This document shows, piece by piece, positions 3,576 to 62,024 of a DNA stretch of 64,000 nt (the first letter of the stretch is position 1; each line of letters opens with the position of its first letter). The DNA is from Anaerolineae bacterium (GTDB lineage Bacteria; Chloroflexota; Anaerolineae; CG2-30-64-16), in contig DAOTZV010000098.1 in NCBI GenBank assembly GCA_034434235.1, forward strand, positions 8,879 to 72,878. Direction: 5' to 3'. The notes under the pieces were generated by a model. That model was not told the origin of the DNA and ran no database searches. It saw nothing but the letters and a program-made list of their open reading frames with translations. A program made the translations under genes and the position numbers.

Positions 3576-3633
3576 GTAGGACGAAATTAATTTCGTCCTA
3601 CAGTGGCGTAGGGCGAAATTAATTTCGCCCTAC
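3576..3633. repeat. Family-B palindromic repeats, 2 tandem copies (GTAGGACGAAATTAATTTCGTCCTAC / GTAGGGCGAAATTAATTTCGCCCTAC)
   Basis: Each copy is a perfect 26-nt palindrome. Second copy overlaps the stop codon of the SCP2 gene. Sits between SCP2 and proB on the same strand. Confidence 0.85.
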
Positions 3634-16590: not shown

Positions 16591-17985
16591 CTATAGTGCG
16601 GCCGCTATTTCCTCGCGTACCCACGCCTCGGGCTCCACCGCGAGCCGTTCTATCAGCGCCTGCATGCCCTCGCGTTCGCCGATCTGCCCCAGGGCCCACG
16701 CCGCGTGCCCGCGGATCAGCGGCTCGGCATCGGCCAGCAGGCTCACGAGCGCCGGCACCAGGGTCCGATCGCCGGCGTTGCCCGCCGCGACGCATGCATT
16801 GCGCACCAGTCCGCGACGTCTGGCGCGCCAGATCGCCGTGCCCCGAAAGCGTCGTCTGAATGCCTCTTCGTCGAGCATCAATAGCTCCCGCAGCGGCATG
16901 GTCGCCCGCCCTGGATCGGCCGGCCAGCGCTCGCGGGGAGCCGGCGTCGCGCGCCGGTTGTATGGGCACACTTCCTGACACACATCGCATCCGAACACCC
17001 AGTTGCCCATGAGCGGCCGCAGATCGCGAGGGATCGGCCCGCGCAGCTCGATGGTCAGATAAGCGATGCAGCGCCGCGCGTCCAGCACGTGCGGCCCGAC
17101 AAACGCGCGCGTCGGGCACGCATCTAGGCAACGCGTGCATCGGCCACATCCACCCCCCTGACGGGAGGCCCCCCCAACCCCCCAATTCTGGGGGGCGCCA
17201 CCTTCCCCCCGCGATCGGGATGCCTGCGAGGCCCCCCCAACCCCCCAATTCTGGGGGGCGCCACCTTCCCTCCGCGATCGGGATGCCTGCGAGGCCCCCC
17301 CAACCCCCCAATTCTGGGGGGCGCCACCTTCCCCCCAGGGTTGGGGGGCCGGGGGGCCGTTCCCTTCCCCCCAGGGTTGGGGGGCCGGGGGGCCGTTCCC
17401 TTCCCCCCAGGGTTGGGGGGCCAGGGGGGCCGTTCCCAACTCGACGGCGTGATCGCGGGCGAGATCCTCCGGCACCGCCAGCGCCGCCAGGAACGTCCAC
17501 GAGCCCATCCCCGGCGCGATCAAGCAGGTGTTGCGGCCGATGAAGCCGAGACCGGCCTGGGCCGCGAAGTCGCGTTCCAGCAGCGGCGCGGTGTCCACGC
17601 ACGCCTTGCCCAGGCCCGTCCGGCCGGTGCGCGCCCGGATGAACGCGTCGAGCGCGAAAAGCCGCGCCTTGAGGAGGTCGTGGTAGTCGGCCGCCCACGC
17701 GTAGCGCGCAAAGCGACCGTGCGCCGGATCGTACCAGGTCGAGGGCGGTGGGCCAGAGAAGTAGTTGGCCGCCACCACGATCAGGCTGGTCATACCCGTC
17801 AGCCACGAGGCGGGATCGAGCCGTTCGGCCGCGCGGTTGGCCAGATAGGCCATCTCGCCGGCATAGCCGGCCGCCAGCCAGTCGGCGAACGCCGCGGCAT
17901 GGGCCGGCCGGCCGATGGGGATGATGCCGCCGCGGTCGAAGCCGAGCGCTTGCGCGTGGACCAGGATATCTTCAACCAGGGTCAT
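16591..17985 (-). CDS. queG: Epoxyqueuosine reductase QueG with ~100-aa in-frame tandem repeat insertion
   Basis: N-terminal cobalamin-binding region, 4Fe-4S motifs CGRCTRCLDACP / CDVCQEVCP, C-terminal HEAT repeats. Inserted (PQPWGEGNGPPA)x3 and (GGAPQNWGVGGASQASRSRREG)x3. Confidence 0.75.
   Translation of the reverse strand: MTLVEDILVHAQALGFDRGGIIPIGRPAHAAAFADWLAAGYAGEMAYLANRAAERLDPASWLTGMTSLIVVAANYFSGPPPSTWYDPAHGRFARYAWAADYHDLLKARLFALDAFIRARTGRTGLGKACVDTAPLLERDFAAQAGLGFIGRNTCLIAPGMGSWTFLAALAVPEDLARDHAVELGTAPLAPQPWGEGNGPPAPQPWGEGNGPPAPQPWGEGGAPQNWGVGGASQASRSRREGGAPQNWGVGGASQASRSRGEGGAPQNWGVGGASRQGGGCGRCTRCLDACPTRAFVGPHVLDARRCIAYLTIELRGPIPRDLRPLMGNWVFGCDVCQEVCPYNRRATPAPRERWPADPGRATMPLRELLMLDEEAFRRRFRGTAIWRARRRGLVRNACVAAGNAGDRTLVPALVSLLADAEPLIRGHAAWALGQIGEREGMQALIERLAVEPEAWVREEIAAAL
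17150..17450. repeat. Tandem repeats inside queG coding sequence: 63-bp unit x3 and 36-bp unit x3, both in frame
   Basis: Direct DNA repeats gaggcccccccaaccccccaattctggggggcgccaccttccccccgcgatcgggatgcctgc and agggttggggggccggggggccgttcccttcccccc. Confidence 0.85.
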
Positions 17986-29611: not shown

Positions 29612-30282
29612 AGCGCGAATTCCGCCTGGCGGGCTATCTTCTGCTGCTGGCGATCTTGCTGGGATCGCTGGCCGCCGGCCCGCAGGTTTGGGCTACGCCA
29701 GATCAAACCGCGAGCAACCAGACGGTGCCCACGCGGACACCGAAGCCGCCCGCGCCGACCGTTGCGCCCACGGCCGCGCCGCGGCCCACGTCTGAGCCGC
29801 AGCCGACCGCGCCGCAACCCACTGCCACAGCGCCCGTCGCGGCCACGCCGTCGCCCACGGCCGTCGCGCCGGCGGGTCGCGTCGACTTGAGCCTGGCGCT
29901 GAGCGTCGCTCCGGTGCAGGTCTGGTCGGGCGTGACGGTGGTCTACACATTGACGGTGACGAACCTTTCGATGAGCGCCCTGCGCGATGTCGTGTTGCTC
30001 GATCCGTTGCCCGCCGACCTGGAGCCCGGCGCGATCCTGGTCGGCCGCGACGTCGGCTGGCAATCCGGCGCCCTGCGCGCCACCTTCGCGGAGCTGGCGG
30101 CCGGCGCACAGGCCGAGGTGATCTTCACGGCGAAGGTGGCGGCCGGGGTGCCGGCCGGCAAGGTGATCGTCAACCGGGCTACGGCCACGGCCGGCGCGGC
30201 GTCGGCCAGCGCGAGCGCGGCCATCGCCATGCCGCCGGCCGAGCTGCCCGCCGTCGGGAGCGGTGCCGTCTGCATTCGTTGA
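29608..30282 (+). CDS. Secreted DUF11 (conserved repeat domain) protein
   Basis: Signal peptide, Pro/Thr/Ala linker, DUF11-like block VVYTLTVTNLSMSALRDVVLLDPLP. Stop codon lies inside a 23-bp tandem repeat. Confidence 0.55.
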   Translation: MKREFRLAGYLLLLAILLGSLAAGPQVWATPDQTASNQTVPTRTPKPPAPTVAPTAAPRPTSEPQPTAPQPTATAPVAATPSPTAVAPAGRVDLSLALSVAPVQVWSGVTVVYTLTVTNLSMSALRDVVLLDPLPADLEPGAILVGRDVGWQSGALRATFAELAAGAQAEVIFTAKVAAGVPAGKVIVNRATATAGAASASASAAIAMPPAELPAVGSGAVCIR

Positions 30283-30330
30283 CGTATTTTGTCTACATTC
30301 GTTAACGTATTTTGTCTACATTCGTTGACG
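30273..30330. repeat. 23-bp direct tandem repeat x2.5 (CATTCGTTGACGTATTTTGTCTA)
   Basis: Units at 30273-30295 and 30296-30318 plus a partial copy. Spans DUF11 stop and the region immediately upstream of the DUF2723 ATG. Confidence 0.8.
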
Positions 30331-30338
30331 TTTCCTGG

Positions 30339-32296: not shown

Positions 32297-34132
32297 ATGA
32301 CGCGCAAGGCAATCCTCATCCTTTTGTGCGCCCTGCTCGTGGTGGCCGCCGGCTGGTTGGGCTGGACGGCCTATCGCGCGGCCGCCTCTGCCCGGCTCGC
32401 GCTGGCCGACCTGCGCCAGCTCCAGGCATTGGCCGCCGACCCGCAGCCGCAGGCGTTGCCGGCGTTGCGTCAGTCCCTCGCCGGGCTGGAGGAACACCTG
32501 ATCGCCACGCGGGCCGCGGCGCGGCCGTTTCTGTGGCTTGCGCCGGGCCTGGGCTGGATACCCGAATACGGGCCGACCCTGCGCGACGCGCCCGCCTTGT
32601 TGGATATGGCCATCGAGCTGGCCGGTGCCGGCCGACAGGCGCTCGACGTGGTGGCGCCGCTCGCCGATTTGCCCGGCCGATCGGGCCAGGGCGAATGGAT
32701 CGGCCAGATGCTGACGGCCATCTCGGCAGCCGGGCCGCAGCTCGAGGCGGCCGACGCACGTCTGGCCCGCGCCGAAGCGCTGCGGCAGCGGGTGCAGGGG
32801 CCGTTGCATCCCCGACTGGTGCCGCAGGTCGAACGGCTGGACCGCTATCTGCCGCTCCTGCGCGCCGGATTGCAGGCCGTGCGGGCCGCGCCGGTCCTGA
32901 TGGGCATGGATAGGCCGCGCACCTATCTGGTGCTGGCGCAAAACAACGACGAGATCCGGCCCACCGGCGGCTTCATCAGCGGCGCGGGGCACGTGCGGCT
33001 CGACCGCGGCCGCATCGTCGAGATCCGGCTCAGCGACAGCTATGCGGTGGATAACTTCAAGCAGCCGCATCCCGACCCGCCCCCGGCCCTGCGCGAACAT
33101 ATGGGCGCCGACCTGCTGGTATTCCGCGATAGCAACTGGTCGCCCGATTTTCCGACCAGCGCGCAGGTGGCCCAGGCGCTCTACGCCCAGGATCAGGGGA
33201 TCGCCACCGACGGCGCCATCGCGCTCGACATGGAGGCGGTGCGGCTGCTGGTGGCCGCGCTCGGTCCGTTGGAAGTGCCCGGCCGGCCCGGTCAGATCAC
33301 GGCCGCGAACGTCATTGCCGAGATCAAGCGCGCGTGGGAAGCGCCGACCGCCAGCGCCGATACGGTCGAGAAGCCGACGGCCGACTGGTTCAAGAAGCGC
33401 AAAGACTTCATGAGCGAGATCGCGGCCGCAGCGCTGGCCAGGCTGCTGGATGGCCGCCAGCTCGACCTGTTGGCGCTCGGCCAGGCCGTGCTCGCCATGC
33501 TCGACGAGCGCCATCTCCAGATCGCGGTGGCCGATGAGACGGTGGCCGCGCTGCTGGCCGAACGTCGCTGGGACGGCGCGCTGGCGTTGCCCCGGCAGGG
33601 CGACTTCCTGGCCGTGGTTGATGCCAACGTCGGCTTCAACAAGGCGAACGCCGCGGTCAAACAAGAGATCGGCTATCGCGTGGCGCCGGAGGGGGACGGC
33701 TTGACGGCCACCCTCGTCGTGACCTATACCCATACGGCCCGGCCGTTGCCCGCCAACGCCGCGTGCGAACGCTCGCTCAAGTACGGCGATTCCTACCAGG
33801 CGCTCGCGGAACGCTGCTATTGGGACTATCTGCGCGTCTACGCGCCCGCCGGCAGCGAGCTCCTCGCGGTCGAGGGATTGAACCGCAGCCAGGCGGCACG
33901 CGGGGAAGGCGGCGCGACCGTGTTCAGCGGCGACTTCGTCTTGCGGCCCGGCGCGCAGACGGCGATCACCTTGCGCTACCGGCTCCCGCCGGCCGTTTCC
34001 CCCGCGGACTACACCCTGACCGTCCGCAAGCAGGCCGGCACACTGGCCGTGCCCCTGCGGGTACAGGTCGGCGCGTGCTTGTGGCAAACAGATTTGAAAC
34101 AGGACCGCATGTTTGCGTGTCGAAAGATGTAA
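32297..34132 (+). CDS. DUF4012 domain protein (N-terminal TM anchor), polysaccharide-locus associated
   Basis: Motif YLVLAQNNDEIRPTGGFIS typical of DUF4012. RBS GAGAGG before ATG 32297. Confidence 0.55.
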   Translation: MTRKAILILLCALLVVAAGWLGWTAYRAAASARLALADLRQLQALAADPQPQALPALRQSLAGLEEHLIATRAAARPFLWLAPGLGWIPEYGPTLRDAPALLDMAIELAGAGRQALDVVAPLADLPGRSGQGEWIGQMLTAISAAGPQLEAADARLARAEALRQRVQGPLHPRLVPQVERLDRYLPLLRAGLQAVRAAPVLMGMDRPRTYLVLAQNNDEIRPTGGFISGAGHVRLDRGRIVEIRLSDSYAVDNFKQPHPDPPPALREHMGADLLVFRDSNWSPDFPTSAQVAQALYAQDQGIATDGAIALDMEAVRLLVAALGPLEVPGRPGQITAANVIAEIKRAWEAPTASADTVEKPTADWFKKRKDFMSEIAAAALARLLDGRQLDLLALGQAVLAMLDERHLQIAVADETVAALLAERRWDGALALPRQGDFLAVVDANVGFNKANAAVKQEIGYRVAPEGDGLTATLVVTYTHTARPLPANAACERSLKYGDSYQALAERCYWDYLRVYAPAGSELLAVEGLNRSQAARGEGGATVFSGDFVLRPGAQTAITLRYRLPPAVSPADYTLTVRKQAGTLAVPLRVQVGACLWQTDLKQDRMFACRKM

Positions 34133-34238
34133 GGCGAAATTTATTTCGCCTTTTTCGTTTCGTGAGATGTAAGGCGAAATTTATTTCGCCTTCTTTCGCT
34201 TCGTGAGCTGTAAGACGAAATGAATTTCGTCTTACAGC
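34128..34238. repeat. Family-B palindromic repeats, 3 tandem copies (TGTAAGGCGAAATTTATTTCGCCTT x2, CTGTAAGACGAAATGAATTTCGTCTTACAG)
   Basis: Hairpin units with ~40-bp periodicity starting at the DUF4012 stop codon. Confidence 0.85.
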
Positions 34239-37211: not shown

Positions 37212-37227
37212 GGCAGGGCCTCCAGAT

Positions 37228-37421
37228 GTAGGGCGAGCTCAAGCTCGCCTTACGCCGTAGGGCGAGATCGCTCTTCCATGTTGTAGGGCGAGCTTAAGCT
37301 CGCCTTACGCCGTAGGGCGAGATCGCTCTTCCATGTTGTAGGGCGAGCTTAAGCTCGCCTTACGCCGTAGGGCGAGATCGCTCTTCCATGTTGTAGGGCG
37401 AGCTCAAGCTCGCCTTACGCC
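37228..37421. repeat. 55-bp tandem repeat x3.5 built from Family-B-like palindromes (GTAGGGCGAGCTYAAGCTCGCCTTAC + GCCGTAGGGCGAGATCGCTCTTCCATGTT)
   Basis: Units start 37228, 37283, 37338, 37393. Directly upstream of pcm RBS; overlaps last 18 nt of the geranylgeranyl reductase ORF. Confidence 0.85.

Positions 37422-57201: not shown

Positions 57202-62024
<4,823 letters not shown>

Follow-up and report, generated by a model that had tools for sequence, protein, structure and literature searches.

A putative in-frame palindromic-element insertion with tandemly amplified, strain-variable arms in the queG gene of an Anaerolineae bacterium

Rickettsia palindromic elements (RPEs) are short palindromic repeats that lie in frame in housekeeping genes and encode fold-compatible peptides; tRNA-modification genes are among their hosts (PMC10969869; PMC3733652). 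The group of repetitive extragenic palindromes (REPs), REP doublets forming hairpins (REPINs) and bacterial interspersed mosaic elements (BIMEs) comprises imperfect 20–40-nt palindromes, often arranged as inverted pairs forming larger hairpins, sometimes tandem and occasionally intragenic; REPs are defined by a GTAG or CGTC tetranucleotide head and are mobilised by REP-associated tyrosine transposases (RAYTs), and in one reported case different REPs were found at about the same recB site in two Xanthomonas species (PMC3733652). The locus described here lies in a 64,000-nt stretch of an Anaerolineae bacterium (Chloroflexota; assembly GCA_034434235.1, contig DAOTZV010000098.1, positions 8,879–72,878, forward strand; the whole stretch is called the window below), within queG, the gene of epoxyqueuosine reductase (QueG). 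By comparison with the above systems it is best described as an apparent in-frame insertion of a palindromic element, both arms of which are tandemly amplified and vary between strains, with RPE-like and intragenic-REP-like behaviour.

The locus is probably explained by a palindromic element of a family named here C6/G6, which was embedded in frame in a permissive hinge of QueG and the arms of which were then amplified by slippage or unequal recombination in units that are multiples of 3 nt. In this scheme, a small element made of two inverted ~29-nt arms, each with a C6-N6-G6 mini-hairpin beside a second C or G run, would come to lie in frame in the surface hinge between the cobalamin-binding and ferredoxin-like domains, having arrived by transposition or templated insertion instead of originating in place; each arm would be amplified separately, with replication slippage as the presumed mechanism or unequal recombination in its stead, to give on the coding strand three 36-nt left units followed by about three 63-nt right units; and the array would drift fast among strains, queG remaining intact. 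The repeats and palindromes of the window that belong to the insert are as follows:

17327-17437, minus strand: left-arm array, 36-bp unit × 3.1, 98% matches, score 213 (Tandem Repeats Finder); coding unit GGCCCCCCGGCCCCCCAACCCTGGGGGGAAGGGAAC, peptide PQPWGEGNGPPA.
17165-17336, minus strand: right-arm array, 63-bp unit × 2.7, 98% matches, score 337 (Tandem Repeats Finder; translation).
17403-17420, unstranded: C6-N6-G6 mini-palindrome, left-arm copy 1 (motif search).
17367-17384, unstranded: C6-N6-G6 mini-palindrome, left-arm copy 2 (motif search).
17331-17348, unstranded: C6-N6-G6 mini-palindrome, left-arm copy 3, CCCCCCAGGGTTGGGGGG on the plus strand.
17304-17321, unstranded: C6-N6-G6 mini-palindrome, right-arm copy 1 (motif search).
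17241-17258, unstranded: C6-N6-G6 mini-palindrome, right-arm copy 2 (motif search).
17178-17195, unstranded: C6-N6-G6 mini-palindrome, right-arm copy 3 (copies in coding order), CCCCCCAATTCTGGGGGG on the plus strand, 0 mismatches.
17296-17356, unstranded: central left/right junction, 26-nt inverted arms (17296-17321 and 17331-17356), 85% complementary, 9 nt apart.

The coding-strand order is three left arms (GGCCCCCCGGCCCCCCAACCCTGGGGGG..), then about three right arms, the 63-bp unit being composed of the arm CCCCCCAGAATTGGGGGGTTGGGGGGGCC and a 34-nt tail and encoding the 21-residue peptide GGAPQNWGVGGASQASRSRRE. The initial annotation had reported two blocks of perfect repeats in the queG frame, 63 bp × 3 and 36 bp × 3, with a 22-residue peptide for the longer unit. 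The repeats are real, and near-identical rather than perfect; the 63-bp array holds about 2.7 units instead of three full ones, and its unit peptide is one residue shorter. Both unit lengths are, as had been claimed, multiples of 3, and the 464-codon reading frame is intact.

Each unit of either length holds one C6-N6-G6 mini-palindrome; for the two 18-nt cores, 6 occurrences were counted in the window, where shuffling predicts 0.11. Read on the plus strand, the 36-bp unit resembles the 63-bp unit read on the minus strand, i.e., they are inverted copies, and the repeat search gave inverted arms of 26–33 nt between the arrays, 79–85% complementary; the central junction represents the canonical single element, and the arrays extend from it. 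The two blocks had been taken for a recent minisatellite expansion tolerated within an enzyme linker; recent, tolerated and in frame it appears to be, but the blocks are not independent of each other and represent the inverted arms of one palindromic element. Folding of the sense-strand RNA of the whole array gave nested stems of −206.8 kcal/mol (z −3.4, dinucleotide shuffles; 0 of 200 shuffles as stable). Rfam, searched with window positions 16900-17700 at E up to 10, returned no family, only sub-threshold look-alikes of miRNA hairpins centred on the central junction.

The left-arm unit resembles the left arm of a dispersed element, e.g., TCGGCCCCCCCGGCCCCCCAATCCTGGGGGG in Thermomicrobiales, and the right-arm core fits the dispersed pattern CCCCCCAGRRTTGGGGGGYYGGGGGG (26 nt, 4 degenerate positions). 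Scanning of one genome per species with this pattern gave at least 120 loci in Cyanobacteriota, Chloroflexota and Armatimonadota; among the matches listed were many cyanobacterial genera and the Chloroflexota orders Anaerolineales, Ardenticatenales and Thermomicrobiales, often with many contigs per genome, and multiple copies per genome were present in, e.g., Thermomicrobiales SMAG_U3822 and Altericista CCNU0014. Oriented extraction of the dispersed copies gave as usual layout a left arm, a spacer of ~20–70 nt and a right arm. The Thermomicrobiales element consists of the two arms alone; in Anaerolineales, Ardenticatenales and cyanobacteria the core is nested in palindromic elements that are longer, specific to the lineage and bounded by outer inverted repeats, e.g., CAGGAGTTACGCAG / CTGCGTAACTCCTG. 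Tandem amplification of the core was found elsewhere too (period 42 × 4 at locus L083; period 36 × 4 at L084). No Rfam family was matched on 14 loci with dispersed copies, and a literature text search with the DNA core and with peptides encoded by it (PQNWG and PPELGG among them) gave only unrelated primer sequences or noise.

Among the matches listed, 21 of 137 core copies lie within long stop-free frames. Hosts confirmed by Pfam are CobN/Mg-chelatase, two polyketide synthase open reading frames (ORFs), DUF2079, an S8 peptidase and a BNR protein; Pfam matches flank the element on both sides in DUF2079, in CobN/Mg-chelatase, where the domain match runs across the element, and in one of the polyketide synthases, where the element is situated in the dehydratase domain. 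The polyketide synthase and CobN/Mg-chelatase copies come from L046 (Altericista sp. CCNU0014, NZ_CP137338.1, 2,032,001-2,040,000) and L048 (a metagenome-assembled Aphanocapsa genome); of the polyketide synthase copies, one is situated within the dehydratase domain and one between the acyltransferase and FabA-like domains. The insert of the S8 peptidase (L035) reads SPQNWGAGGA, the same frame as in the window QueG; elsewhere the element is read in other frames (PPELGG, PPRIGG, PPILGG).

The occurrence of the core in frame in queG, CobN, two polyketide synthases, DUF2079, S8 peptidase and BNR protein is RPE-like, the likeness being one of behaviour only. The hosts are Chloroflexota, Cyanobacteriota and Armatimonadota, not Rickettsia; the sequence family is another one; the bare C6/G6 element measures ~60–90 nt vs ~100–150 nt for RPEs; and, unlike RPEs, dispersed C6/G6 copies were absent from the host sequence sampled (64-kb window and same-species flanks). 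Membership in a Rickettsia RPE family is implausible, given the host phylum and the G/C-run sequence. We know of no description of RPEs with tandemly amplified, strain-variable arms like those in queG. The consensus sequences of the C6/G6 arms carry no GTAG or CGTC head, and the element is therefore not placed among the REPs. Of the traits of a MITE (miniature inverted-repeat transposable element), terminal inverted repeats are present as the left and right arms of the queG insert, the same arms being found in the dispersed copies; many further copies in the same genome were not seen (0 others in the 64-kb window and same-species flanks).

The features of the gene and its product are:

16591-17985, minus strand: queG (epoxyqueuosine reductase), 464 aa, uninterrupted frame (ORF list, Pfam and PDB matches).
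17590-17823, minus strand: QueG_DUF1730, core of the cobalamin-binding domain, residues 55-132 (Pfam PF08331, E 1.5e-17).
17152-17436, minus strand: in-frame insert, residues 184-278, ~95 aa, Gly/Pro/Trp-rich (gap vs 5d6s; AlphaFold2; missing in ortholog L003).
17113-17148, minus strand: first [4Fe-4S] motif CGRCTRCLDACP, residues 280-291, directly 3' of the insert (translation; counterpart in 5d08, CGSCTKCLDACP).
16957-17148, minus strand: Fer4_16, ferredoxin-like domain for two [4Fe-4S] clusters, residues 280-343 (Pfam PF13484, E 1.3e-23).
16594-16803, minus strand: HEAT_2, C-terminal HEAT-like domain, residues 395-464 (Pfam, E 1.8e-12).

The ORF was matched to the solved QueG structures 5d08 (B. 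subtilis, E 2.7e-49) and 5d6s (S. thermophilus, E 5e-37), with both of which the cobalamin-binding domain also aligns; the protein is identical to the NCBI-derived entry P0123, which was found via cluster membership. Residues 209 and 210 of the 5d6s chain are adjacent and correspond to residues 183 and 279 of the query; the insert therefore spans residues 184-278, in agreement with the ~100 added residues that had been proposed between the cobalamin-binding domain and the 4Fe-4S motif. [quoted passage not shown] Two CxxCxxCxxxCP-type [4Fe-4S] motifs were confirmed in the ferredoxin-like domain. Residues C280, C283, C286, C290, C333, C336 and C340 are invariant across 66 orthologs and, like every other residue invariant in that alignment, are retained in the window QueG. 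Judged by its sequence, the insert-bearing gene looks functional, and the enzyme would still be active; reading it as a pseudogene was dropped, since the frame is intact and the invariant residues are kept. An intein was dismissed as well (no Hint or endonuclease domain in QueG by Pfam), as was a CRISPR array (repeats without unique spacers; Tandem Repeats Finder).

AlphaFold2 modelling with the 66-sequence alignment gave a mean predicted local distance difference test score (pLDDT) of 78.5 and a predicted template modelling score (pTM) of 0.77; the three domains are confidently folded, and pLDDT falls below 50 only at residues 184-278. The insert thus looks, in the model, like a disordered surface loop that QueG tolerates. 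The peptide motif PQxWG is present in both arrays.

The initial annotation had further suggested that copy number may vary between strains, and this is the case: assemblies 98.5–99.8% identical in nucleotide sequence carry different arrays. They are listed below with nucleotide identity to the window, L and R being left-arm and right-arm units and L*, R' and R'' sequence variants:

Window (= P0123, NCBI), reference: LLL-RRR', 464 aa.
L001 (ENA), 99.8%: LL-RR', 431 aa.
L002 (JGI), 99.1%: LL-R'', 411 aa.
L124 (JGI), 98.5%: LL-R-L-R'', with new junctions, in frame.
L132: at least LLLLL*-R-LLL*, then a scaffold N-gap; incomplete.
L133: contig starts inside the array, ..R-L-L*-R'; incomplete.
L134: contig starts inside the array, ..L-L*-R'; incomplete.
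L003 (NCBI), 85%: without insert, 21-aa hinge, same gene order, 378 aa.

At least six distinct array structures are thus found among seven short-read assemblies (the window, L001, L002, L124, L132, L133 and L134). The presence of the insert and the variation in unit order are real, because the complete alleles are in frame in 4 of 4 cases (window, L001, L002, L124) across the compared assemblies; the exact copy numbers from short reads are unreliable. The caution about an assembly artefact expressed earlier was accordingly partly justified as regards copy number (two contig ends, one N-gap), and unjustified as regards the insert being present. Short-read assembly breaks reproducibly at the array, at the contig starts of L133 (1-240) and L134 (1-153) and the N-gap of L132 (2776-2929). 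All units, including a 27-nt short left unit in L124, are multiples of 3, and unit gain, loss or re-ordering therefore never breaks the frame; as the Gly/Pro/Trp-rich, predictedly disordered loop seems to be tolerated, the array would drift quickly between strains while queG stays intact. The comparison with orthologs, which had been recommended, yielded the 85%-identical L003 as the closest empty site, in which no precursor of the left or the right arm was seen. A metagenome scan with the 36-bp unit returned L124 alone and missed the pattern-bearing L002, so that the scanned collection is incomplete for this lineage.

With their head-to-tail 36- and 63-nt units, 98% matches, preserved frame and differences in number and order among near-identical strains, the arrays are like the variable-number tandem repeats (VNTRs) of coding regions. 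Classic VNTRs of this kind are found in surface or secreted proteins, where length variation is accompanied by a phenotype; in the present case, the array lies where two domains of a cytoplasmic tRNA-modification enzyme are hinged, and it is built from the arms of a palindromic element.

The hinge was also measured in other QueGs, from the GSWxxL motif to the first Fe-S cysteine. Its usual length is 18–19 aa (L003, 21 aa). For the 114 closest orthologs parsed, the minimum, median and maximum were 19, 33 and 105 aa, with more than 25 aa in 94%; for 92 parsed representatives of diverse QueGs (50% identity clusters), 18, 19 and 82 aa, with more than 25 aa in 20% and 21 aa or less in 75%. The expanded hinges are mutually unrelated in sequence: TTDDGRRTT..VVGRRSSVV; DEGRRTKDE..SSFVLRPSSFV; GSWKLEAGNWKLE or SSFQLP; SPSPARGGE..SPFPRREGGWGV. 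Typing of the hinge peptides by regular expressions was crude (47 of 114 unclassified) and supports only the existence of several unrelated types. At the DNA level, the hinge of L125 is a near-perfect hairpin of ~70 nt (z −8 against shuffles); hairpins were likewise found in L130 (z −6), L128 (z −5), L129 (z −4) and L131 (z −3.6), and long imperfect ones in L126 (z −2.8) and L127 (z −2.5), vs none in the hinge DNA of L003 (z +0.6). At the same hinge, the more distant QueG L131 has one element of the C6/G6 family in the left-spacer-right arrangement; it is not amplified and is translated in another frame (PPSPPILGG). L125, L129 and L130 share a conserved 27-pair stem with 3 compensatory pairs. 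A 14-mer search of ±10 kb flanks gave no second copy of the hinge DNA of any ortholog, so that dispersal of the remaining hinge types would be conjectural.

The short tandemly repeated repetitive (STRR) heptamers and the small dispersed repeats of cyanobacteria are short G/C-run or heptamer sequences that form hairpins and can nest in other sequences; the (GACGAYG)n-plus-complement hinge hairpins of L125, L129 and L130 resemble such heptamer arrays. The filling of the QueG hinge by different palindromes parallels the recB case of Xanthomonas. Long hinges that look like translated repeat elements were also noticed in two diverse QueGs of distant lineages, P0144 (..LPSPFHGEGPGVGAG..) and P0165 (..FDKVYPEPFD..LRAGFAQGKLRRGAQGRQSSGQA..); from these sequences, the site may perhaps be used for insertions beyond this clade. 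The hinge is a permissive and possibly a preferred insertion site. That it is, in this Chloroflexota clade, a true hot spot that captures or retains hairpin DNA is doubtful. One possible cause would be machinery, e.g., an enzyme binding the C6-N6-G6 core, directed at hairpins already in place or at the G-rich stretch preceding the Fe-S motif; another would be selection of a stable structure at the domain boundary, e.g., for a co-translational pause for cobalamin loading, renewed by the turnover of unrelated palindromes.

Selection for the hairpin itself is the main rival of element insertion, though an unlikely one: a stable mRNA or single-stranded DNA structure at the domain boundary would be useful, and palindromes would replace one another while the structure stays. 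It might pause the ribosome for folding or cofactor loading of the cobalamin domain before the Fe-S domain emerges, or might serve mRNA stability. The idea accords with the expanded hinge that 94% of the 114 closest orthologs possess (medians, 33 aa vs 19 aa in diverse QueGs), with the better-than-shuffled folding of every expanded hinge for which DNA was obtained (L125–L131), with the compensated 27-pair stem in three orthologs of one hinge type and with the stability of the window array itself (−206.8 kcal/mol). The structure is nevertheless dispensable, because L003, the closest insert-free relative, as well as P0037 and P0044, keep canonical short hinges free of hairpins; hinges range from 19 to 105 aa with unrelated sequences, arrays vary freely among near-identical strains, unlike a tuned regulatory element, and the covariation comes from three sequences, templated repair being also able to keep palindromes without selection. 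Still less would be expected of an adaptive peptide, i.e., a Gly/Pro/Trp-rich loop that by its composition or length tunes QueG, whether by tethering, by offering an interaction surface or by modulating tRNA binding in a phase-variable manner. The complete alleles are all in frame, both arrays encode PQxWG, and the S8 peptidase insert shares the reading frame; but the frame is kept automatically, since the units are multiples of 3, the same DNA is translated in other frames elsewhere, the segment is predicted to be disordered, and the hinge peptides of orthologs are unrelated. This explanation is accordingly very improbable.

Several observations weigh against insertion of a C6/G6 element. Neither another core nor a loose C5+-N4-8-G5+ site was found in the 64-kb window or in the flanks of L001, L002, L124 and L132, so that dispersal or past mobility in this organism would be hypothetical; comparison with L003 revealed no convincing target-site duplication around the insert, CGTC being present on both sides of it and once in the empty site, which may be chance, and the 85% identity blurs the boundaries; and the copy numbers derive from short-read assemblies in evident difficulty at this locus. 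The first two of these would suit a purely local minisatellite, in which hinge sequence was duplicated in place and G/C-run hairpins in GC-rich DNA have converged on a likeness to C6/G6 cores, and so would the G-rich character of the native hinge before the Fe-S motif (GGGGGCGGG in L003). Such an origin seems quite unlikely, however, in view of the exact matching of the 26-nt core at the loci of three phyla with the same left-arm/spacer/right-arm architecture, of the lone C6/G6-family element, not amplified, that L131 carries at this site and of the lack of a precursor of either arm in L003. The struggle of the assemblers bears on another alternative, that the insert or its repeat structure was made by mis-assembly: contigs of L133 and L134 begin within the array, L132 has its N-gap there, and near-identical tandem units can be collapsed or expanded. 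Seven independent assemblies from NCBI, ENA and JGI samples, on the other hand, show the same units at the same queG codon, and the unit variants (L*, R', R'') and new junctions exceed what simple collapse yields, which makes an artefact hardly credible.

The remainder of the window holds the following repeats and insertions:

57202-61947, minus strand: gyrB with a large intein; Intein_splicing, LAGLIDADG_3 and HTH_3, flanked by Toprim and the C-terminal domain of GyrB (Pfam), insertion motif ..YHRVLIM/S...CCHN/TDADVDG..
60848-60902: AT-rich 8-bp tandem repeat (AAATCGGT) × 6.9, just upstream of the likely gyrB start (MAPEQ..).
37227-37421: GTAG-headed REP-like palindrome GTAGGGCGAGCT(C/T)AAGCTCGCCTTAC, 55-bp × 3.5 array.
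3576-3633: GTAG-headed REP-like palindrome GTAGGACGAAATTAATTTCGTCCTAC, present as a pair.
34125-34233: 41-bp × 2.7 tandem repeat with hairpin AAGGCGAAATTTATTTCGCCTT; GC 39% vs 66% for the window.
30268-30331: AT-rich 23-bp × 2.8 tandem repeat (GTCTACATTCGTTGACGTATTTT), GC 38%.
2350-2428: (GGGGGCT)n heptamer repeats at the proB/proA junction.

With use of the upstream ATG, the heptamer repeats would encode an N-terminal Pro/Ser-rich extension of ProA; otherwise they are intergenic. Neither of the two REP-like palindromes is crossed by a stop-free frame; they look intergenic and are unrelated in sequence to the queG insert, and from their GTAG heads the genome also holds classical REP-type repeats.

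The locus would be a clean natural case, outside Rickettsia and proteobacteria, of a palindromic repeat within an enzyme gene whose frame is unbroken. The strain-variable array might be used to tell strains of these uncultured Chloroflexota apart and is a predictable break point for short-read assemblies; for protein engineering, the junction of the cobalamin and ferredoxin domains of QueG appears, by sequence, to tolerate ~100 extra residues. Of possibly greater weight is the wider pattern: an expanded hinge, encoded by unrelated hairpin-forming sequences, in 94% of related QueGs, and a core that occurs in three phyla. It poses a testable question, namely, whether hinge insertions accumulate through permissiveness of the site, through attraction of hairpins by hairpins or through usefulness of the hairpin. 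The finding would gain in importance if the hinge turned out to be a genuine hot spot or a structure with a function, or if the core marked an undescribed mobilisation system; in the case of a hot spot, the 26-nt core of three phyla would mark an undescribed system of mobilisation or recognition.

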